In this document: positions 1,238 through 63,870 of the stretch, one piece after another
How positions within the stretch are numbered: the stretch's first letter is position 1
Layout of the letters: each line of letters begins with the position of its first letter
Position numbers and translations under genes: made by a program
The notes under the pieces: model-generated
Told to the model about the DNA's origin: nothing
Seen by the model: only the letters and a program-made list of their open reading frames with translations
Databases searched by the model: none
NCBI GenBank assembly: GCA_007121015.1
Contig: SKMN01000003.1
Location: 4,413 to 68,412, forward strand
Length of the DNA: 64,000 nt
DNA from: Coriobacteriia bacterium
GTDB taxonomy: Bacteria; Actinomycetota; Coriobacteriia; Anaerosomatales; SLCP01
Direction of reading: 5' to 3'

Positions 1238-3115
1238 ATGCGCGTGGATGAGATGGTATTCGGACGCAGGTACCGTGCGACTGAGAAGATCGGGTCGGGC
1301 GGTATGGCCGACGTCTTCAAGGCGGTCGACGAGGTCCTCGGCCGCACGGTAGCGGTCAAGGTCCTGCACCCGCGATACGCTGCCGACCCCGGGTTCGTTG
1401 CCCGCTTCCGCCAGGAGGCCCAGGCTGCGGCCAACCTCTCGCACCCTGCGATCGTCAACATCTACGACTGGGGCCGCGACGACGAGACGTATTACATCGT
1501 CATGGAGTACGTGCGCGGCACCGACCTCAAGCACCTCATCGAGGAGCGCGGCGCCATCGACCCGATGAAGGCAGCCGAGTACGCCTCGCAGGTGTGCGCG
1601 GCACTCGCGGTCGCCCACGGCTACGACATCATCCATCGCGACATCAAGCCCCATAACATAGTGCTGACGCCCGACGGTGCCGCGAAGGTTATGGACTTCG
1701 GGATCGCGCGTGCGGGCAACACGACGATGACCCAGACCGGCTCGGTCCTCGGAACTGCACACTACGTGAGCCCCGAGCAGGCCCAGGGCCGCACGCTCGA
1801 TCCCGCTTCCGACCTCTACTCGCTCGGCATCGTCCTCTACGAGCTCACCACCGGTAAGCTGCCGTTCGACGCGGACACGCCCGTGGCGGTGGCACTCAAG
1901 CAGGTCAACGAGGAGCCCGTGCCTCCTCGGCAACTCAACCCGCAGATCCCGGCCGCGCTCGAGGCGGTCATCATGCGGGCGCTCCAGAAGGATCCCTCGG
2001 CCCGCTACGCGTCTGCCGAGGAGATGCGCGCGGACCTCAAGCGCGTGCTTCAGGGAGACGCTGTCACGCCGCCTCAGGCAATGGCTGCCGGCGCCGCCCC
2101 GTTCCCCGACCAGACGTCGGTGCTGCCCACGGTAGGAGGACCGGCCACCGGTGCCGGTGGGCCTCCGCGCGTGCGCCCGGTGCCGCAGAAGCGCAAGCCC
2201 TGGCCGTGGATCATAGCGGCGGTGCTCGTGCTCCTCGCCACTCTGGGCTTGGCGTGGGCGATGGGCGCGTTCGACACGACTCCTCGGGTCGTGGTGCCCG
2301 AGGTCATCGGCATGACAGTGGAGGAGGCCGCCGAGGAACTCGAACTCGTGAACCTCACCGTGGGCCCGATCACCGAACAGCACAGCGAGGAGTTCGAGTC
2401 CGGTCAGATCATCGACCAGACGCCGGAGCCGGGTGTGGAGATCGCCGAGGGCTCCGAGGTGTCGCTGGTCGTGAGCATCGGCCGCGAGGAGGTCGAGATA
2501 CCCGACTTGATCGACCTCCCCGAGAGCGAGGCCATCCGCGCGGTCCGCGACGTCGGCCTCGAGATCGACATACAGCGGGAGTTCAATGCGGACGTCCCGC
2601 CCGACACCGTCTTTGGCCAGAGCCCGTCCGCAGGCGAGATGGTCCCGCCCGGCTCGATCGTCACCATCTCGGTCAGCCGAGGCACCGAGCTGCGCCGCGT
2701 CCCCGACGTGACGGGGCAGACCCGCCAGCAGGCCACAGCGGCGCTCCAGGACCTCGGTTTCCGGGTCAACGTGACCGAGGAGTTCAGCGAGACCGTCGCT
2801 CAGGACCGCGTCATCAGCCAGAGTCCGGAGGGCGGCGTGTCCCTCGATGTGGGCGCGACCGTGACGCTCCGCATCTCCAGAGGTCCCGACACGGTGACCG
2901 TGCCCGACGTCATCGACCTGACCGAGACCCAGGCGCGCTCGGCGATCACCGGCGCGGGGCTACAGGTCGAGGTCAACTACCAGGAGGACCCACGCGACGG
3001 GATCGTGCTCACTCAGAACCCGATCCCGGGCGCGACTGCGCGTCGCGGCGACACGGTGAGGATCTGGGTCGGCAAGGCACCGCCGCCCGATGAGGAGCCC
3101 GAGGAGAACGACTAG
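1238..3115 (+). CDS. pknB: Ser/Thr protein kinase with four extracellular PASTA repeats (PknB/Stk1 type)
   Basis: Hanks kinase motifs are present: GSGGMADVFKA, VAVKVL, HRDIKPHN, DFGIAR, SPEQA. A Pro-rich linker and a TM segment (WPWIIAAVLVLLATLGLAW) follow, then four ~65-aa PASTA-like repeats (VPEVIGM.., IPDLIDL.., VPDVTGQ.., VPDVIDL..). The start could also be the Met at 1253. Confidence 0.9.
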   Translation: MRVDEMVFGRRYRATEKIGSGGMADVFKAVDEVLGRTVAVKVLHPRYAADPGFVARFRQEAQAAANLSHPAIVNIYDWGRDDETYYIVMEYVRGTDLKHLIEERGAIDPMKAAEYASQVCAALAVAHGYDIIHRDIKPHNIVLTPDGAAKVMDFGIARAGNTTMTQTGSVLGTAHYVSPEQAQGRTLDPASDLYSLGIVLYELTTGKLPFDADTPVAVALKQVNEEPVPPRQLNPQIPAALEAVIMRALQKDPSARYASAEEMRADLKRVLQGDAVTPPQAMAAGAAPFPDQTSVLPTVGGPATGAGGPPRVRPVPQKRKPWPWIIAAVLVLLATLGLAWAMGAFDTTPRVVVPEVIGMTVEEAAEELELVNLTVGPITEQHSEEFESGQIIDQTPEPGVEIAEGSEVSLVVSIGREEVEIPDLIDLPESEAIRAVRDVGLEIDIQREFNADVPPDTVFGQSPSAGEMVPPGSIVTISVSRGTELRRVPDVTGQTRQQATAALQDLGFRVNVTEEFSETVAQDRVISQSPEGGVSLDVGATVTLRISRGPDTVTVPDVIDLTETQARSAITGAGLQVEVNYQEDPRDGIVLTQNPIPGATARRGDTVRIWVGKAPPPDEEPEEND

Positions 3116-25816: not shown

Positions 25817-26086
25817 CTAGCGACCTCTGCGACCGTCGATCTTGCCGCTCACCACGGGAACGGTGTAGGGCACGAGCGCCATCTCTCGGGCGCGCTTCAC
25901 GGCGATCGACAGCTGGTGCTGATGCTGGGCGCAGGTACCGGAGACCCGGCGCGGCTTGATCTTGCCGCGATCGGTCATGTACTTGCGCAGCATCTGCGAA
26001 TCCTTGTAGTCGATGTACTCGGTCTTGTCCTTGCAGAAGGCGCAGTACTTGCGCCTTGGCCTGCGTGCGTAATCGGACACTCTCAT
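25817..26086 (-). CDS. rpsR: 30S ribosomal protein S18
   Basis: [64 protein letters not shown] matches S18. The start is at Met30 of the ORF-track entry (AAAGGAGGA SD). Confidence 0.95.
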
Positions 26087-26176
26087 GTCCTCCTTTCGCT
26101 TCTCTCGAAGCGGTGTGTTCCTACGGGTAGGTGCGGGCGGGGCGGGAGGGTTCCGCCGCCGTACCGCGGGCATCTC

Positions 26177-28267: not shown

Positions 28268-28343
28268 TGGAGCGGGCAACGGGTCTCGAACCCGCGACCT
28301 ACAGCTTGGGAAGCTGTCGCTCTACCAACTGAGCTATGCCCGC
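28268..28343 (-). tRNA. tRNA-Gly (anticodon CCC)
   Basis: On the minus strand: GCGGGCA-TA-GCTC-AGTTGGTA-GAGC-G-ACAGC-TTCCCAA-GCTGT-AGGTC-GCGGG-TTCGAGA-CCCGT-TGCCCGC-T-CCA. The cloverleaf is canonical, the discriminator is U and CCA is encoded. Confidence 0.95.
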
Positions 28344-28462
28344 ATGGTGTCGCATTGTACGCCACCGGCCGAAGCCCGGGCAACGGAGCGCGCCCCGTGC
28401 CGCCTGTTGCATCGTGCCGACGTGGGGAACATTCTCTGTACACTCGGAAGGAGGCATGCTTC

Positions 28463-29629
28463 ATGGACACTCTCGACCGTGAACGACTCGTAGGGCTCGC
28501 CCGCCACCAAGGGTGGCCCTCTGTATCCATCTACCAGCCCACTCACCGAGCAGGATCGGAGACGCAACAAGACCCGCTTCGACTCAAGAACCTCCTCAAA
28601 CAGGCCGAGGCGACACTTATCGACAGCGGTATACGGACTCCCGAGGTGGATGCATTCCTCCGGAAAGCATGGGACGTGCAGTCCGATAGCGGCTTTTGGC
28701 GCAATGGTTTCGAAGGGCTCGCGCTCTTCGTGAGCGACGGCGTGTTCCACGTGTTCCGCACGGCGGTACCCCTGCCCGAACGCGTACGCGTCGACGAGCA
28801 CTTCTTGATCCGCCCACTCGTCCCAGCGCTCGCACCCACTCTTCGCTTCTACGTCCTCGCGCTGAGCAAGAACCGGGTGCGGCTCCTTGAAGGCACGCCC
28901 GAAGCGATCCACGAGGTCGACCCGGAGGGCATACCTCAGGGCCTCGCCGAGGCGCTCAAGTACGATGACTACGAGACCCAGGTCCAGTTCCACTCCCGCA
29001 CCCCCGCCGCAGCGGGGGGTCGCGGGAAGCGCTCTGCGGTTTTCCACGGTCACGGCGGCCACGCGGACGCTGCGAAGGACGATCTCGAGCGGTACTTCAG
29101 ACTCGTCGACAAAGGGCTCAGGGAGCACATCGGGACGTCCGGCGCCCCGCTGCTCCTGGCGGGCGTCGACTACCTGCTGCCGATCTACCGCTCGGTGAGC
29201 ACGTACACGGACCTGTTGCCCGAGGGCCTGACCGGCAACCCCGACGAGATCCCGGCAGCACGCATCCACGCTGAAGCGCTCGAACTGCTCGAACCGTACC
29301 TCGCGCGCGAGTTCGAGAGGGACCTCGCCGCCCTCGAAGCGGCGCGTGAGGCCGAGGGCGCCTCGACCGATATCCGAGACATCGTGCTTGCCGCCCACGG
29401 CGGCCGCGTCCAGACACTGTTCGTGGCAGACAATGGAGCCATCTGGGGGCGGGTCGCACCCGAGAGGTCCGAGGTGCTGCAACGCGAGAGCCGCGAGCCG
29501 GGCGACGCCGACCTTCTCGACCGCTCCGCGGCGCAGACGCTCCTGCATGGCGGGGCGGTCCATGTCATGACAACCGAGGAGGCCGCGACCGCTGTGGGCG
29601 GCCAGATAGCGGCCCTGCTGCGTTACTGA
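28463..29629 (+). CDS. bacterial archaeo-eukaryotic release-factor-like (baeRF/eRF1-fold) family protein
   Basis: The start is at ATG 28463 (GGAAGGAGG SD, 7-nt spacer). The N-terminal pattern LVGLARHQGWPSVSIYQPTHRAGSETQQDPLRLKNLLKQAE is what I recognise from the computationally defined baeRF families. There is no GGQ; the nearest is a GHGGH loop. Needs HMM confirmation. Confidence 0.6.
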   Translation: MDTLDRERLVGLARHQGWPSVSIYQPTHRAGSETQQDPLRLKNLLKQAEATLIDSGIRTPEVDAFLRKAWDVQSDSGFWRNGFEGLALFVSDGVFHVFRTAVPLPERVRVDEHFLIRPLVPALAPTLRFYVLALSKNRVRLLEGTPEAIHEVDPEGIPQGLAEALKYDDYETQVQFHSRTPAAAGGRGKRSAVFHGHGGHADAAKDDLERYFRLVDKGLREHIGTSGAPLLLAGVDYLLPIYRSVSTYTDLLPEGLTGNPDEIPAARIHAEALELLEPYLAREFERDLAALEAAREAEGASTDIRDIVLAAHGGRVQTLFVADNGAIWGRVAPERSEVLQRESREPGDADLLDRSAAQTLLHGGAVHVMTTEEAATAVGGQIAALLRY

Positions 29630-30108
29630 TCCTCGGCGTCCGACAAGGGGGTCGTAAGGGTGCGGTCAGGGCCTCCGAAGTACGTGATGAAGACCCTGAC
29701 GCCGCCTATCGCGACGATGACCACGGCGAAGGCCATGACCATCGGCCAGGAAAGCTGTAGGCCGAACAGGCCTATCCACAGCTCCCTGAAGACGATCGCG
29801 AGCGAGACATCGGCGAGGTTCGTGATGCTGATCCGCTGGTCACGAAGGTACCCCAGGAGCGAGTGGAATATCTCGATGAAGATGAAGATGGTGAGGATCT
29901 CGATGAAAAGATTCTTGACCTCGTATTCCACCGCTCCGGTCATACCCTGGTACAGATCGACCCCAACGAGCCAGACCGTCCACGCGAGCGCCACGAGAAC
30001 GAGGACGACGAGCGCGTCCACGAAGATCGACATCGCGTTCCCTGCCACCCGGTCCACGAACGCCGCGACCGGCTTCGCAGGCGCGGCGCGCCCGGTATCC
30101 TTCTCCAT
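29623..30108 (-). CDS. PsiE-like (phosphate-starvation-inducible E family) membrane protein
   Basis: The ILTIFIFIEIFHSLLGYLRDQRISITNLADVSLAIVFREL core is PsiE-like. The start is chosen at ATG 30108 (GGAGG SD, 5-nt spacer); upstream in-frame Met codons have poorer SDs. Confidence 0.65.
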   Translation of the reverse strand: MEKDTGRAAPAKPVAAFVDRVAGNAMSIFVDALVVLVLVALAWTVWLVGVDLYQGMTGAVEYEVKNLFIEILTIFIFIEIFHSLLGYLRDQRISITNLADVSLAIVFRELWIGLFGLQLSWPMVMAFAVVIVAIGGVRVFITYFGGPDRTLTTPLSDAEDQ

Positions 30109-30207
30109 CTGTTCCTCCGTATCGTCGACAGCGGTATGCTGGTGCCCGACCTCGGACATACCCTCGCACGCTATCACCATCAGGCACACTGCGCTCGGAG
30201 CAATACC

Positions 30208-30615
30208 ATGACAGAACACGACACCGACACGTGTGACAATGGGGCCGACCCGGCCGAGGTCCAGCAACGACTCGCCGAGGAGCGTACCGTCATGGCGCTC
30301 CAGCGCACCGTGCTCTCCAACGAGCGGACGCTCAACTCGTGGCTACGCACCGGGCTCGCGACGATGGCCGCGGGGTTCACCATCGGCCTGCTCCTCGGCC
30401 AAGAAGGAGTCCTCGGGCCTGCGCGTATATTCGGCGCTGCACTCATCGCGACCGGTGGCCTGATCTGCATCGTCGGGCTCGTCCGCTACCGGTCACTGCG
30501 CAGCCGACTGGAGCCCGAGAACGTCTCGTCGGTTCCCGTGTGGCTCCTCGAGACGCTCGTCGCCTTCTTCATACTCGTGGCCTTCGTCGGCGCACTCGTG
30601 CTGTTGCGCGGGTGA
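30208..30615 (+). CDS. DUF202 (YidH-like) membrane protein
   Basis: LAEERTVMALQRTVLSNERTLNSWLRTGLA is the DUF202 signature, followed by three TM segments. The start is at ATG 30208; upstream ORF-track residues are antisense of psiE. Confidence 0.7.
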   Translation: MTEHDTDTCDNGADPAEVQQRLAEERTVMALQRTVLSNERTLNSWLRTGLATMAAGFTIGLLLGQEGVLGPARIFGAALIATGGLICIVGLVRYRSLRSRLEPENVSSVPVWLLETLVAFFILVAFVGALVLLRG

Positions 30616-30644
30616 CGCGCGAGGGGAAGCGAAGGGACGTGACC

Positions 30645-31064
30645 CTACTTGCCGAGCATCCGCTGGAACGTGTCGACGTGGTCCTCCTCGTCGCCGAGGA
30701 TGGACTCGAGCAGACGGCGCGTGGTCACATCACCGGCCTCGTCGGCCTGCTTGATGGCAGCCCGGTAGAGCTCCACGGCTTCCTCTTCGCTCGCAAGATC
30801 CGTCTCGGCCATCTCGGACAACGTCGTAGCAGCCGTTGGGAACGGTGCCGGCTTGCTCGTAGGATCGCCGCCAAGGAAGTCGATGCGCTCGGCGAGCTCC
30901 TCGGCATGCTTCATCTCGGTGATCGCAACCTCTTTGAACTCACCGGCGAGCGCGAGCCCCTCCGGCCCGGTCACCAGGTAGTGGTGCCGCATGTACTGCA
31001 TGCACACGGCTAGCTCGCGCGAACGCAGGTCGTTCAAGGTGTCGATAAGGGCCTGATCAGCCAT
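30645..31064 (-). CDS. ferritin-like diiron protein (bacterioferritin-like)
   Basis: Paired E...ExxH-type motifs are present (RELAVCMQY..., EMKHAEELAERI, ...EEEAVELY, GDEEDHVDTF). The start is at ATG 31064 after a GAGGAGA SD. Confidence 0.7.
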   Translation of the reverse strand: MADQALIDTLNDLRSRELAVCMQYMRHHYLVTGPEGLALAGEFKEVAITEMKHAEELAERIDFLGGDPTSKPAPFPTAATTLSEMAETDLASEEEAVELYRAAIKQADEAGDVTTRRLLESILGDEEDHVDTFQRMLGK

Positions 31065-46273: not shown

Positions 46274-47536
46274 CTACGGTTCGCGGACGACCGGGCAGGT
46301 CATGCAGTGGCATCCGCCTCGGCCTTTGCCGAGCTCCGCACCCTCGATCTCGATGACCTCGACGCCCGCTTCGCGAAGCCGCGCGTTGGTGTGCGTGTTC
46401 TTCGAGTATGCGATGACCACGCCCGGTTCGAGCGCGACCACGTTGTTCGCGTCGTCCCACTGCTCGCGGGCGGCTTGGAAGGTGTCTCCGCCGGTGGCGA
46501 CGACGCGAACCTCACCGATGCCGAGCGCATCGGTGACGGCGGCGTACACGTCGGTCTCCTCGGCGATGTCGAAGTGCCCCTTCCGGTCACTCGGGTAGAT
46601 GCTGTAGACCTTCATCGCGTCGACCACCGGACGGTACGCGATGACCACCTCGCGGTCGACGAACCCGAATACCGTGTCGAGATGCATGTACGCGCGGTCC
46701 TGCACCATGCGGCACGCGATGATCCGCTCGGCCGCCTCGGCCTCGAAGAGCGCGTCCGCCATGTGCTCGACCATGCGTCCCGTCGAACGCTCCCCCATAC
46801 CTACAAGCACGGTCCTGTTGCCGATGGGCATCACGTCTCCGCCTTCGAGTGACACCTCCTGGCCGAGGTCTTCGACCGCGAACCGTCCCGCGTCGCCCTC
46901 CGGCGGGTACCAAAAGGAGAACTCGGCCGATGCGAAGCGCGGGTGGTAGCGGTAGATGAATGACAGGTTCACCACTTCGAGGCGACGTGCATGCCAGAAG
47001 AGCGGCGGCAGCACCACCCCGCTGTAGAGCCATGCGCTCGAATCGCGCGTGAAGAGGCTATTGGGGAGCGGCGGGAGAACGAACGTGTCGTGGTCGGCGA
47101 GCACGGCGCCGAGGGAGCGGCGCGAGAGCTCGGCGATGTCGGCGCCCTCGATCTCCGAGAGGAGCAACCCGCCGATGAGGGCCTCGGCCAGGTCGGCCGG
47201 GTCGAGACCGGCGAGGTAGCTCTGCAACTCGCCGACGAGCGAGAGTCCGACGGTGTAGGAAGAGACCGCGCGCTCGACGATCCCGTCGCGCGCCTCGGCA
47301 GAGTGCGCCAGCGTCTCTGCGAGCAGTTCCTTGACGTAGAGCACTTCCACGCCACGGCCGCGGAGCACGTCGGTGAACGCGTCGTGCTCCTCCCGGGCGC
47401 GCTCGACCCACACGAGGTCGTCGAAGAGGAACTCCTCGCGGTTGGCGGGCGTCAGCCGTTCGAGCGCCCGGCCAGGTCGGTGCACCAGCACCGTGCGCAG
47501 CGCGCCCACCTCCGAGTGCACGCCGATCGAACCCAT
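46274..47536 (-). CDS. arcA: arginine deiminase
   Basis: GVHSEVGALRTVLVHRPG, FDDLVW and the C-terminal catalytic GRGGCHCMTCP are present. No arcB or arcC is nearby. Confidence 0.9.
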   Translation of the reverse strand: MGSIGVHSEVGALRTVLVHRPGRALERLTPANREEFLFDDLVWVERAREEHDAFTDVLRGRGVEVLYVKELLAETLAHSAEARDGIVERAVSSYTVGLSLVGELQSYLAGLDPADLAEALIGGLLLSEIEGADIAELSRRSLGAVLADHDTFVLPPLPNSLFTRDSSAWLYSGVVLPPLFWHARRLEVVNLSFIYRYHPRFASAEFSFWYPPEGDAGRFAVEDLGQEVSLEGGDVMPIGNRTVLVGMGERSTGRMVEHMADALFEAEAAERIIACRMVQDRAYMHLDTVFGFVDREVVIAYRPVVDAMKVYSIYPSDRKGHFDIAEETDVYAAVTDALGIGEVRVVATGGDTFQAAREQWDDANNVVALEPGVVIAYSKNTHTNARLREAGVEVIEIEGAELGKGRGGCHCMTCPVVREP

Positions 47537-60823: not shown

Positions 60824-62647
60824 TCACGCGCTCCCAGCCCTGCGCTTCTCCGACTTCTTGCGCTCGTTCGCGTCGAGGACGCGCTTGCGGATGCGGACCG
60901 GGCGGGGCGTGACCTCGACCAGCTCGTCATCTTCGATGTATTCGAGCGCCTCTTCGAGGGTGAAGCGCACGGGCGGGGCGAGGATGATCCCCATGTCCTT
61001 ACTCGATGCACGCATGTTCGTGAGCTGCTTGGCCTTGGCGACGTTGACGACGAGGTCGCCCGCCTTGGCGTTCTCGCCCACGATCATGCCCTCGTAGCAC
61101 TCGTCCCCCGGCTCCACGAACAGCGTGCCTCGCTGCTGGAGCGCATCGAGCGCGTAGGCAGCCGCTTTGTCGGTCCCCATCGCGATGAGCGAGCCGTTGA
61201 TGCGTCCGCCGATATCCCCGCGGTGCGGACCGTACGCGCTGAAGTGGTGGAAAAGTACGGCCTCCCCGCGGGTCGTGTTAAGGATCCGAGTGCGCAGCCC
61301 CATGACGCCGCGAGACGGTATCGAGAACTCGAGGTGGACGTGTTCGTCGCGCTGCACCATGTCGAGCATCTCGCCGCCGCGCGACCCGAACACCTCGATG
61401 ACCTTGCCGGCGTATTCGCTCGGCACGTCGACGATCGCGAGCTCGTAGGGCTCGAGAAGCTTACCGTCCTCGCGCTTGAAGATCACCTGCGGACGGCCGA
61501 CCTGGAACTCGTAGCCCTCTCGGCGCATCGTCTCCATGAGGACCGACAGGTGCAACAATCCTCGGCCGGCGACCTCTATGCCGGTACGGTCCTCGGTCTC
61601 GCTGATGCGCATCGAGATGTTGGACTCTGCCTCGCGCATGAGGCGCTCTTTTAGCTGGCGCCCGCCGACGATGGCGCCGTCGCGTCCCACGAACGGGCTC
61701 GTGTTCGCCGAGAAGACCACCGCCATCGTGGGCTCCTCGACGTGGATCGGGTCGAGCGTGACGGGCGAGGTGCGGCACGTGAGCATGTCGCCGATGTCGA
61801 CATCGTCGACGCCCACCACCGCGACGATGTCGCCCGCGTGGACCTCGGCGGCCTCGGCGCGCCCGAGCGCCTCGAACGTGTAGAGCTGCTTCGCGGTCGC
61901 CTCGTAACGGCTCCCGTCGTTCTTGATGACGAGTACGCGGTCGCCCGTGCGCATCGTGCCCGAGAACACCCGGCCGATGCCGATGCGACCCACGTACTCG
62001 GAGTAGTCGATGGTGCAGACCTGCATCGCGACGGGCCCGGAGACATCGACCTCCGGTGCGGGTATGTGCTCGAGCACCGCGTCGAGCAGCGGCGTCATGT
62101 CGGCATTGTCGTCGTCAGGCTCGAGGCGCGCGTAGCCGTTCACGGCGGACGTGTAGACCACCGCGAAGTCGAGCTGCGTATCGTCGGCGCCGAGTTCGAC
62201 CATGAGGTCGAAGACGGCATCGAGCACCTCGTCGGGCCGGGCGCCCGGGCGGTCGATCTTGTTGATGACGACGAGCGGAGCCAGCCCGTGCTCGAGCGCC
62301 TTGCGCAGCACGAACCGCGTCTGCGGCATCGGGCCCTCGAACGCGTCCACGATGAGCAGTACGCCGTCGGCCATCCTCAGCACGCGCTCGACCTCCCCGC
62401 CGAAATCAGCATGGCCCGGCGTGTCGATGACGTTGACCTTCACGTCCCGCCAGCGGATCGAGATGTTCTTCGCGAGGATGGTGATGCCGCGCTCGCGCTC
62501 TTGGTCGCCGGAGTCGAGCACGCGCTCGGCGACCTCTTGGTTCTCGCGGAACACGTGGGTCGTCTGCAGGAGCCGATCCACGAGCGTGGTCTTGCCATGG
62601 TCGACGTGGGCGATGATGGCGATGTTGCGGACATCGGTGACGTGCAT
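60824..62647 (-). CDS. typA: translational GTPase TypA/BipA
   Basis: [31 protein letters not shown] and NKIDR are present, with EF-G-like domains. The start is at Met76 of the ORF-track entry. Confidence 0.95.
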
Positions 62648-62712
62648 GCCGAGGAACCCTTTCGTATCGAGCCGCCGCGCGCGGTGCGCGGATAGAGCGG
62701 CGGATAAGAGTA

Positions 62713-63870
62713 TCACGCATCGAGCCGCTCGGCGACGCTCGCGACGAGCACACGCGAAAGCCGGGAGGCCGGGACGCCCCGCGTCTCGCCCATGTCGATG
62801 TCTAGGTGGGACCCGAGCACGCCTACGAGTTCGCGCGTGACCGAGAATCGCCGCTCGCCACCCGCTTCGCACGATTCGAGCAGTCGGGCTCCTTCGAGTG
62901 TCGCCAGGTCGCGTCTCGCCTCGACCGTCGGTATGCCCGCGAGGGCCCCGTAGAGCGGAACCGTCAGAGCCCGTCCGAACACCACCTCGTGGACAGCCTC
63001 TATCGACCGTGACGGTATATCAGGCATCTCGGCGAGGAGCTCTTCGAGCGCCTCGAACACGGCGCACTCGACCAGGGCCGAGCGTCTGAGTGACTGGCCC
63101 TGCAACCGCTGTGCGCGTACGTGCGTCGCTACGAACTTCGTGACGTCTGTGTCGGGGTCCCACGAGGTGCCCAACGTGAGGAACGCGCGGTAGTAGTCAC
63201 CTCGGTGAGCCCCCCACCACTGCTCGAGGCTCATGAACTCGAGACCGGTGAACCCCCCGTGCGCCATGGCCGCCGCGGCGAAGATACGGGCGAGGCGCCC
63301 GTTGCCGTCGGGGAACGGATGTATGCCCGCGAGCCGGACATGGAGCAACGCCGCACGTACGGCTGGATGCGCCTCGGCTTCGTTCGCCCAGTCGCAGAGT
63401 TCACGGACGAGGCCGGGCAACAAGTGCCACGGTGGCGGCTCGTAGAAGAACCCTCCCGACGAAGTGTCTCCGAGATAGACCTGGGATGTCCGATACACGG
63501 CCGCCGCGGGTTCGCACTGCATGAGACGCCGCTGTACCGCGAGCACGAATGCCTCGCGGTACGCGAACATGGGTTCTCGCACGTGCGCAAGGGTCCACGC
63601 GTGGGCGTCGCGATACGCGTCTATCGCCGCGCACTCCTCCGAACAGAGCTCCGGCGGCGGATCTCCCGCGAGCACGCGCACCACGTCAGCTGCGGACGCC
63701 GGCATGTTCTCGATGGAGACCGAGCCCGCAACGCCGGCGGCCTCGACCTCGCGTCTGAGGTGCCCGACGAACCGCACGGGGGCGCCGTCCGAGCATGCAG
63801 GGTCGTCCCTCAGCGCATCGAGGGCGTCGAGGTCTTCTCGGGTGGCGCGAGTGATCGAATACCTGTACAC
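62713..63870 (-). CDS. Fic family protein (class II, N-terminal inhibitory helix) with C-terminal winged-helix-like region
   Basis: The Fic motif [12 protein letters not shown] (HxFx[DE]GNGRxxR) is present, as is the N-terminal SVSIEN matching the [ST]xxxE[GN] auto-inhibition motif. The start codon is GTG. Confidence 0.85.

Follow-up and report, generated by a model that had tools for sequence, protein, structure and literature searches.

One gene in the 64,000-nucleotide stretch of DNA analysed here (the window) probably encodes a ribosome hibernation factor of the Balon type, a three-domain bacterial homologue of aeRF1 belonging to the baeRF-1 clade, and its product would most likely plug the A site of ribosomes that stand idle under stress, with no release of the peptide. 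Balon, described by Helena-Bueno et al. (Nature 2024, PMC10901736), occupies the ribosomal A site and puts ribosomes to sleep in stress, and cryo-EM, knockouts and in-vitro translation have identified the Balon of Psychrobacter urativorans and two mycobacterial homologues as A-site hibernation factors (PMC10901736). For the Balon family, mRNA is not needed for binding, EF-Tu(GDP) joins the factor, and translation is inhibited (PMC10901736). A preliminary description of the locus had recognised a stand-alone eRF1-like protein of the baeRF families and held these families to be defined only computationally, with no experimentally established function. The identification is borne out by the analysis below, whereas the second statement has been overtaken by the work on Balon, itself a member of baeRF_family3, and on its mycobacterial homologues (PMC10901736).

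The gene extends from an ATG at 28463 to a TGA at 29627-29629 and its translation agrees with the 388-aa open reading frame described before (Table 1). It is preceded by its own Shine-Dalgarno sequence, as had been noted, and the N-terminus MDxL is common to all 41 aligned relatives, so that a longer ORF opening with TTG at 28355 is not the gene. The sequence formerly quoted as the protein start (LVGLARHQ...) is in fact residues 9-49, and the true N-terminus reads MDTLDRER. The earlier account of the flanks was accurate: the gene diverges from tRNA-Gly(CCC), which lies 119 nt upstream, and converges with a gene for a PsiE-family protein (185 aa in the gene call of GCA_007125935.1), whose stop codon at 29623-29625 gives an overlap of 7 nt. 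Since both neighbours are on the opposite strand, the gene is by geometry a single-gene unit, in agreement with the description of it as monocistronic. The only site in the promoter scan, a promoter-like one from 28383 to 28354, was assigned to tRNA-Gly; no intrinsic terminator appeared in the terminator scan at the locus, and Rfam returned just two tRNAs and no leader RNA or riboswitch. No paralogue of the protein was found within the window. With PsiE and a ferritin-like gene, the neighbourhood has a stress flavour.

Table 1. Features of the Balon-like gene, its product and its immediate neighbours (positions in the window)
Feature	Position	Strand	Basis
CDS of the putative Balon-family (baeRF-1 clade) protein, 388 aa, including stop codon	28463..29629	+	ORF/translation, Pfam, NCBIfam, PDB, Foldseek
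Shine-Dalgarno sequence GGAAGGAGG	28446..28454	+	sequence reading; ATG 8 nt downstream
N-terminal domain, aa 1-124, predicted counterpart of the decoding-centre-binding domain of Balon/eRF1	28463..28834	+	AF2; Balon alignment
Extended N-domain loop PTHRAGSETQQDP, aa 26-38, counterpart of the Balon HP-motif loop	28538..28576	+	column-by-column Balon alignment
Middle (RNase-H-like, baeRF) domain, aa 125-262, predicted counterpart of the domain reaching the peptidyl-transferase centre	28835..29248	+	Pfam aa 128-315; AF2
Middle-domain loop, aa 171-202, at the position of the eRF1 GGQ loop and Balon lasso loop, predicted flexible	28973..29068	+	pLDDT < 50
FHGHGG motif, aa 194-199	29042..29059	+	sequence; conservation in relatives
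C-terminal (Pelota-like) domain, aa 297-388	29351..29626	+	AF2 pLDDT 89-96; Balon/MSMEG_1130 alignment
Predicted two-strand C-domain insert, aa 328-341, counterpart of the Balon beta-loop contacting EF-Tu	29444..29485	+	DSSP strands 328-332, 337-341
Chance GGQ tripeptide, aa 379-381, C-domain	29597..29605	+	sequence; variability in relatives
tRNA-Gly(CCC), divergent neighbour, context only	28268..28343	-	ARAGORN and Rfam
PsiE-family membrane protein gene, convergent neighbour, context only	29623..30180	-	Pfam PF06146, 8.1e-11

Homology to Balon is evident from several searches. A scan against the Pfam baeRF models, which had been suggested as a check, gave matches over the full model length to baeRF_family7 (PF18849; E 4.9e-45, 153.7 bits against a threshold of 27.2) and baeRF_family3 (PF18845; E 1.5e-43, 149.5 bits against a threshold of 31.5) and further matches to baeRF_family6, baeRF_family8 and baeRF_family11, the baeRF models covering aa 128-315; Balon scores 105 bits with baeRF_family3, less than the window protein does. 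The NCBIfam model of the Balon ribosome hibernation factor (NF052287, AOC03_06830) aligned residues 12-388 with its positions 4-361 of 361 at E 7.9e-47. The score of 160.4 bits is below the curated equivalog cut-off of 330, while Balon as positive control reaches 506.7, and four other members of the sub-family to which the window protein belongs score 138-176 bits. With the models NF052288 (MSMEG_1130) and NF052289 (Rv2629) the window protein gave no match at E up to 0.01, and two sub-family members were matched weakly (E 1.4e-07 to 9e-04). In a phmmer search of the PDB, Balon alone was matched (8rd8_B, 8rdv, 8rdw; E 1.1e-20), and a family profile of 42 sequences recovered Balon at 2.5e-38 and the M. 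smegmatis Balon MSMEG_1130 (8v9j_z) at 2e-08, with no other credible match. BLASTP aligned 331 aa with Balon at 27% identity (E 3e-25), the homology between the two proteins being full-length. By the operational definition in use, a Balon is a protein of at least 300 aa that HMMER can recover from the P. urativorans sequence (PMC10901736); one pass of phmmer and NF052287 both link the window protein of 388 aa to Balon with the E-values given above. Judged by its sequence, the protein is a member of a known family in which Balon is the nearest characterised relative.

The fold and the order of the domains point the same way. In the AF2 model of the protein (mean pLDDT 82.9), the predicted structure is a three-domain fold of the aeRF1 type in the Balon arrangement. 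All of the top five Foldseek matches are ribosome-bound Balons (8rdv_B, 8rd8_B, 8rdw_B, 8v9j_z and 8v9l_z; TM 0.67-0.75), the best being 8rdv_B of Psychrobacter (E 2.6e-22, TM 0.70/0.74) and 8v9j_z of Mycobacterium (TM 0.70/0.75), and Rv2629 is found at rank 7. The similarity to the eRF1/Pelota fold, for which structure prediction had been proposed as a check, is confirmed, with the Balons closest. Compared with aeRF1/eRF1 and Pelota/Dom34, the window protein shares the superfamily and the domain order, and differs in lacking NIKS and a catalytic GGQ, in its global conformation and in its host, a bacterium with RF1 and RF2 of its own; aRF1, eRF1 and Pelota appear in the Foldseek results with TM 0.2-0.44 and E 1e-14 to 1e-5.

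This kinship raises the question whether the protein might instead be a non-catalytic rescue or quality-control factor like Pelota/Dom34, one that would enter the A site when ribosomes stall and help them to dissociate or be recycled, and not store idle ones. Besides the superfamily fold and the three-domain order in common with Pelota, it may be adduced that Burroughs and Aravind proposed that baeRF-1 proteins relieve stalled ribosomes in the manner of Dom34 (PMC6514570) and that Balon can bind ribosomes still bearing peptidyl-tRNA (PMC10901736). We nevertheless regard such a role as unlikely: as a whole the protein superposes badly on Pelota (TM 0.2-0.36, against 0.70-0.75 on Balon), in 78 loci the gene has beside it neither a GTPase nor a splitting ATPase as a conserved partner, and all characterised close relatives behave as hibernation factors.

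The motifs of the protein also fit a hibernation factor of the Balon type. Four features from the list published for this type (Supplementary Fig. 5 of PMC10901736) are found, namely the absence of NIKS from the protein sequence, an extended N-domain loop, the absence of the middle-domain Gln and a two-strand insert in the C-domain, and Psychrobacter Balon (AOC03_06830; 8RD8, 8RDV, 8RDW; TM 0.70-0.74) has the same combination. The N-domain, with pLDDT mostly 83-97, aligns with Balon residues 2-152. Its loop at aa 26-38 equals that of Balon in length and has T-H-R...Q-D-P in common with it; G31-S32, however, occupy the place of H27-P28 of Balon, in which HP occurs only once, at residue 27. Of 119 relatives, 85% carry G at position 31 and 23% carry P at position 32, the sub-family having mostly G-x here. 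Since the mycobacterial Balons lack HP as well, this dipeptide marks the Psychrobacter type and not the whole family. An hhalign comparison with eRF1 placed an 8-residue insertion at the loop; the alignment is weak (E 0.14) and comprises the N-domain alone, without bringing the HGHGG loop onto the GGQ loop. At the other end of the protein, R387-Y388 are invariant, and the alignment reaches the terminal TRY of Balon and LRW of MSMEG_1130. The C-domain is predicted to contain the beta-hairpin (beta-loop) insertion of the Balon family (pLDDT about 90), in which W328 and G329 are nearly invariant and which aligns to roughly residues 306-325 of Balon; a two-strand insert at this place has been described for both baeRF-1 and Balon (PMC6514570, PMC10901736).

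The middle domain is where the protein departs most visibly from Psychrobacter Balon. The region of aa 155-212 comprises 58 aa against 35 aa in Balon, that is, 23 residues more, with two additional short helices, and the loop within it is of constant length across the 119 relatives. Q175 (94%), H177 (95%), G188, R190, A192, F194, H195, G196 and G198 are each kept in at least 92% of them, and F176 and H197 in 87%, giving a signature QFH...GxRxAxFHGHG which is absent from Balon. Along FHGHGG itself, which BLASTP pairs with TTGDGG of Balon, conservation is 99% for F, 97% for H, 100% for G, 87% for H and 92% for G, but just 48% for the second G of the pair, and residue 200, at the position of the eRF1 Gln, is variable. 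With its 23 additional residues, its high conservation and a prediction of low confidence, the loop probably makes contacts at the peptidyl-transferase centre other than those of the lasso loop of Balon, which passes around A2602, and of its bL27 trap.

According to the preliminary description, the protein has no GGQ, its closest loop being FHGHGGHADAA. That loop is indeed found, at residues 194-204, and the middle domain is devoid of GGQ; in the literal sense, however, the statement fails, as a GGQ stands at aa 379-381. Being C-terminal and unconserved, this tripeptide is a matter of chance and not a catalytic motif: about 0.09 GGQ are expected by composition, position 381 in relatives is P, D, S or A, and any GGQ occurs in only 8 of the 119. 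The pair of motifs by which a class-I release factor is recognised, NIKS and a middle-domain GGQ, is missing, and the doubt already voiced about peptidyl-tRNA hydrolysis is well placed because the middle-domain loop lacks the release-factor Gln. That the protein is an active peptidyl-tRNA hydrolase all the same, acting as an alternative release or rescue factor with the Q-F-H...F-H-G-H-G loop in place of GGQ, seems to us very improbable. The best local alignment with human eRF1 does pair HGHGGHA with the GGQ loop of the latter, which we take to be HGRGGQS; this likeness has no statistical significance, 148 of 300 shuffles scoring just as high. The strong conservation and constant length of the loop speak in favour of catalysis, as the loops that Burroughs and Aravind described for inactive baeRF-1 families are, on the contrary, unconserved and free to vary in length (PMC6514570). 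Against it, residue 200 is variable and the second Gly of the pair poorly kept, the matching loop of Balon is held outside the catalytic centre while the nascent chain remains attached (PMC10901736), and bacteria with baeRF-1 proteins retain RF1 and RF2 (PMC6514570).

The gene neighbourhood, whose conservation had also been proposed for analysis, was surveyed in 80 related loci, whose 2,044 flanking ORFs were clustered by BLAST, and 139 immediate neighbours were scanned against Pfam. No partner gene is conserved across phyla: the 139 neighbour ORFs yielded 136 families, with cation efflux (5), HPF/S30AE (4) and AAA (4) the commonest, and gene order is kept at the level of lineages only. The window yielded no EF-Tu evidence and no HPF gene, HPF/RaiA being sought by tblastn with the E. 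coli proteins. In four related loci HPF/RaiA (PF02482) directly adjoins the gene, an adjacency reported for baeRF-1 and Balon (PMC6514570, PMC10901736). DUF2177, a P-type ATPase and a GGDEF/EAL gene recur in Coriobacteriia relatives only and form, together with the Balon-like gene, a class-level syntenic block common to two Coriobacteriia loci (L003, L007). PsiE, DUF202 and the ferritin-like gene are not repeated in the loci of relatives, none of which yielded a PsiE, and an adjoining tRNA gene was seen in one of 60 related loci (tRNA-Cys, L038) and tRNA-Gly in none. As neither is conserved in relatives, the tRNA-Gly and PsiE neighbours carry no functional signal, and the adjacency to a tRNA is incidental. 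A genomic island was likewise rejected on account of flat GC and the absence of flanking repeats. It is hardly credible that the gene is a component of conflict or anti-phage systems, or mobile-element cargo inserted by a tRNA gene, that halts translation on attack: although it adjoins a tRNA, a common integration site, and Burroughs and Aravind linked the laterally transferred baeRF-1 clade to biological conflicts (PMC6514570), PADLOC-DB 2.0 gave no match at E up to 0.01 for the protein or its PsiE neighbour, the GC content stays level from 22 to 38 kb, the gene has neither an integrase nor a repeat on its flanks, it lies inside the class-level block, and 59 of the 60 related loci lack the tRNA.

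Returning to hibernation of the Balon type, the homology with the cryo-EM structures of Balon allows a course of action to be outlined, in which ribosome binding, the stress trigger, the involvement of EF-Tu and the absence of catalysis are all what we infer from the relatives. When growth stops, the protein would fill the A site of 70S ribosomes; its N-domain loop would touch the decoding centre while the mRNA is not read, and the C-domain with its two-strand insert would point to the site at which factors bind, and EF-Tu(GDP) may join it there. The outcome would be ribosomes whose active sites are reversibly blocked and protected. The step with EF-Tu may not be general, because EF-Tu was not seen with the Balon of Synechocystis. 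The latter, whose structure is pdb_000031TX, was found on LrtA-bound hibernating 70S ribosomes, together with neither EF-Tu nor translating ribosomes, and is reported to contact the rRNA of the decoding and peptidyl-transferase centres via residues unlike those of Psychrobacter Balon, to which it is 30% identical (bioRxiv 10.64898/2026.07.03.736309). Its identity to Psychrobacter Balon is about that of the window protein, and differing rRNA contacts are what the divergent loops of the window protein would predict; it was not among the best 120 matches of a cyanobacterial query. The mycobacterial Balons MSMEG_1130 and Rv2629 (8V9J, 8V9K, 8V9L) come from the same phylum, Actinomycetota, and resemble the window protein in fold and ribosome-bound conformation (TM 0.64-0.75) as well as in lacking NIKS and GGQ, and they differ from it in sequence (15-16% identity in structural alignment, and a profile E-value of only 2e-08) and in their larger C-domain insertions. 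As to the hosts, Psychrobacter is a psychrophilic gammaproteobacterium whereas the window comes from an anaerobic Coriobacteriia-like actinobacterium, and our results suggest that such an organism possesses a Balon-type route to ribosome dormancy.

A more far-reaching reading, which we consider quite unlikely, is that the sub-family is a large, unnamed fourth lineage of Balon whose long conserved loop interacts with the peptidyl-transferase centre differently from that of Psychrobacter Balon. The loop might then reach the CCA end of the P-site tRNA or have a His-dependent activity on peptidyl-tRNA, and the lineage would be more than a passive plug of the A site. Since its scores lie below all three Balon equivalog models of NCBI, the sub-family is a sensible target for structural work, and the conserved FHGHG loop together with the altered decoding-centre loop would reveal variation in the mechanism of Balon between phyla. 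The main value of the present analysis lies in annotation, as thousands of such proteins still bear the name hypothetical or "baeRF domain-containing", even though the nearest relatives that have been characterised are hibernation factors. A literature search on baeRF3, baeRF7, PF18845 and PF18849 found no papers, and members of the sub-family are annotated as baeRF3/baeRF7 domain-containing or hypothetical; cultured organisms that carry one include Chlorogloeopsis fritschii PCC 6912 and Aggregatilinea lenta. A phmmer search recovered 7,824 clusters of related proteins at 50% identity; the sub-family ranges over Coriobacteriia, Chloroflexota, Gemmatimonadota, Cyanobacteria, Desulfobacterota and other phyla, and the cyanobacteria are rich in its members.

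The start of the Balon-like gene is placed at 28463, since all of the aligned relatives (41/41) open with the same MDxL; a longer TTG-initiated frame from 28355 was rejected on this ground. The reading frame of 388 codons with its own Shine-Dalgarno sequence stands as given in the preliminary description, and the peptide quoted there as the protein start proved to be residues 9-49.

Features of the window and HPF/S30AE-type genes in two related loci (L-prefixed coordinates)
Feature	Position	Strand	Remarks
PknB-type Ser/Thr kinase	1238-3115	+	four PASTA repeats
rpsR (S18), longest ORF	25817-26173	-	Pro/Arg-rich N-terminal extension, ~29 residues, ahead of internal Met
tRNA-Gly(ccc)	28268-28343	-	119 nt upstream of Balon-like gene, divergent
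Shine-Dalgarno GGAAGGAGG	28446-28454	+	8 nt before ATG of Balon-like gene
CDS of Balon-like protein	28463-29629	+	ATG at 28463, TGA at 29627-29629, 388 aa
PsiE-family gene	29623-30180	-	PF06146, 8.1e-11; convergent with Balon-like ORF, 7-nt overlap
DUF202 gene	30208-30615	+	between Balon-like gene and DUF2177
Ferritin-like gene	30645-31064	-	between Balon-like gene and DUF2177
Arginine deiminase	46274-47536	-	PF02274, 3.4e-108
TypA/BipA translational GTPase	60824-62872	-	~31 kb from Balon-like gene
Long HPF/S30AE-type gene	L066:5013-5648	+	~210 aa; directly upstream of Balon-like gene, Mastigocoleus testarum BC008
Long HPF/S30AE-type gene	L026:7271-7897	+	~210 aa; directly downstream of Balon-like gene, bacterium GSL_GB14_3

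Pfam profiles bear out the baeRF assignment first made from the sequence (family7 4.9e-45, family3 1.5e-43, plus families 6, 8 and 11). The NCBIfam model NF052287, "AOC03_06830 family ribosome hibernation factor", named after Balon of Psychrobacter urativorans, aligns its positions 4-361 of 361 with residues 12-388 (7.9e-47), and in all PDB sequences phmmer matched a sole protein, chain B of the Balon-ribosome cryo-EM entries 8RD8, 8RDV and 8RDW (1.1e-20). A profile of the 42-member family alignment A1 matches Balon (2.5e-38) and the M. smegmatis Balon MSMEG_1130 (8V9J, 2e-08). The Balon sequence, reconstructed from search alignments to the deposited chain length of 369 aa, is itself a Pfam baeRF_family3 member with 105 bits, against 149.5 bits for the window protein, and in BLASTP the two share 27% identity across 331 residues (E 3e-25). 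That the protein belongs to the Balon/baeRF-1 family is nearly certain.

The AlphaFold2 model built on A1 (mean pLDDT 82.9, pTM 0.67; pLDDT below 50 solely at residues 171-202) leads to the same family. Foldseek against the PDB places ribosome-bound Balons at ranks 1-5, with Psychrobacter Balon at E 2.6e-22 and TM 0.67-0.74, and Msmeg1130 at TM 0.70-0.75; Rv2629 follows at rank 7. The eRF1/Pelota fold is present, and the refuting condition of the preliminary description, that no similarity to this fold exists, fails decisively. A Pelota-like, non-catalytic rescue factor would share this fold; archaeal aRF1, eukaryotic eRF1 and Pelota/Dom34 rank after the Balons (TM 0.2-0.44), and we regard this role as improbable. 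As far as the predicted model goes, the closest conformers are hibernation factors.

The baeRF-1 clade was defined computationally by Burroughs and Aravind 2019 (PMC6514570). Helena-Bueno et al. 2024 (PMC10901736) found that during cold shock and in stationary phase Balon sits in the A site of ribosomes, whether these are vacant or carry peptidyl-tRNA. It reaches the decoding centre via an extended loop (HP motif) leaving mRNA untouched, its lasso loop encircles A2602 outside the catalytic centre and the bL27 tail is trapped, while EF-Tu(GDP) joins via a beta-loop of the C-domain; after a long stationary phase, knockout strains show poor recovery. Rv2629 and Msmeg1130 share the binding site and are inhibitors of in-vitro translation, and about 20% of bacteria carry a homologue (PMC10901736). 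A Synechocystis Balon, 30% identical to that of Psychrobacter, was reported on LrtA-bound hibernating 70S (2026 preprint, bioRxiv 10.64898/2026.07.03.736309). Because of these experiments, the preliminary description, which recognised the family correctly, is outdated in holding that it has no experimentally established function.

Set one by one against the structural features of Balon in PMC10901736, the window protein shows both likeness and difference. No NIKS motif occurs in it. Its N-domain loop PTHRAGSETQQDP (aa 26-38) is exactly as long as KTHREHPANDQDP of Balon, with T, H, R, Q, D and P in common; the one HP dipeptide of Balon (H27-P28) corresponds to G31-S32, and most of 119 relatives have G-x at this place. 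Since the mycobacterial Balons likewise lack HP, the dipeptide separates sub-types, not families. The C-domain two-strand insert (aa 328-341) and the invariant C-terminal R-Y are as in Balon. In the middle domain FHGHGG aligns with TTGDGG of Balon, aa 200 (the Gln position in eRF1) is variable in relatives, and the second Gly of FHGHGG is conserved in just 48%. The earlier claim that GGQ is lacking holds for this loop, which has no Gln, and is literally wrong, as GGQ occupies residues 379-381. The latter is part of the C-terminal domain, relatives have P, D, S or A in place of its Gln, and any GGQ at all occurs in just 8 of the 119; it is a chance tripeptide.

The segment from EGIP to [YF]F has 58 residues against 35 in Balon and is predicted as two short helices with a flexible loop. 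Among the 119 relatives it is strongly conserved (Q175 94%, H177 95%, G188 92%, R190 95%, A192 95%, F194 99%, H195 97%, G196 100%, H197 87%, G198 92%, K205 97%, R210 96%). The best local alignment with human eRF1 pairs HGHGGHA of the window protein with HGRGGQS, a resemblance that is statistically not significant. A catalytically active hydrolase working through this conserved His/Gly loop is imaginable on conservation and, given the loop lacking Gln, very unlikely. Loops of Gln-less baeRF-1 families were described as "poorly conserved, length-unconstrained" (PMC6514570), in contrast to the present sub-family, and this unexplained loop of a large unnamed sub-family is where the residual interest lies.

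From the homology and fold we infer that the window protein probably acts as a Balon-type hibernation factor, a new, uncharacterised member of an experimentally characterised kind. It would occupy the A site of idle 70S ribosomes and recognise the decoding centre independently of mRNA; the peptide would not be released, and EF-Tu(GDP) may be a co-factor.

The NF052287 curated equivalog cut-off (NCBI) is 330 bits; Balon scores 506.7, the window protein 160 and four other sub-family members 138-176. With E limited to 0.01, the mycobacterial models NF052288 and NF052289 give no match to the window protein, and they match 2 of the 4 others just weakly (E 1.4e-07 to 9e-04). By such profile scores the lineage lies outside every "hibernation factor" model, and its members are annotated hypothetical or baeRF3/baeRF7 domain-containing. 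This is a large lineage of wide phylogenetic spread, with 7,824 matches at E <= 1e-3 and 3,021 at E <= 1e-30 among 1.84 billion cluster representatives. The nearest relatives are in Coriobacteriia and Anaerosomatales (52-58% in GTDB genomes, up to 85% in metagenomes); others are in Chloroflexota, Gemmatimonadota, many cyanobacteria, Desulfobacterota, Planctomycetota, Bacillota and further groups.

With both flanking genes on the opposite strand, the Balon-like gene forms a unit of its own; the divergent tRNA-Gly, convergent PsiE and monocistronic arrangement noticed beforehand are all confirmed. The sole sigma-70-like site in a promoter scan of the region is directed into tRNA-Gly. A conflict or mobile-element role is most improbable: the window is an ordinary chromosome segment (66.8% GC; PASTA kinase, DnaB, rpsF-ssb-rpsR, M23 peptidase, arginine deiminase, TrkH, TypA/BipA), with no compositional anomaly around the gene and no PADLOC match for the protein. 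The window holds no paralogue, and tblastn with the E. coli HPF/RaiA proteins found no HPF gene in it; the identical protein recurs in MAG GCA_007125935.1 (contig SLCG01000011.1).

None of the neighbours in 80 related loci is conserved from one phylum to another, and 139 immediate neighbours spread over 136 Pfam families; HPF/S30AE adjoins the Balon-like gene in four loci, L066 and L026 being two of these, echoing the published association. A tRNA adjoins in just 1 of 60 loci (tRNA-Cys). Two Coriobacteriia loci (L003, L007) have the order Balon-like, DUF2177, P-type ATPase, PAS-GGDEF-EAL, a common order by which the gene is vertically held in the class. In the window three small stress-type genes (PsiE, DUF202, ferritin-like; 29623-31064) intervene and look like a local insertion, because DUF2177 directly follows in L003 and L007. 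The tRNA-Gly and PsiE are local accidents; PsiE and the ferritin-like gene lend a mild stress-response flavour.

The most recurrent flanking cluster is an NtrC-type sigma-54-dependent response regulator within 4 kb in 13 of the 80 loci, from several phyla (L009, L021, L025, L044, L045, L057-L059, L073, L074, L077, L080, L082), which may be chance because this family is very large. TypA/BipA, a stress-linked ribosome binder, gives no sign of a link to the Balon-like gene. The real rpsR start may be the internal Met. Arginine deiminase and the PASTA kinase are ordinary housekeeping/energy genes and fit a Gram-positive anaerobe.
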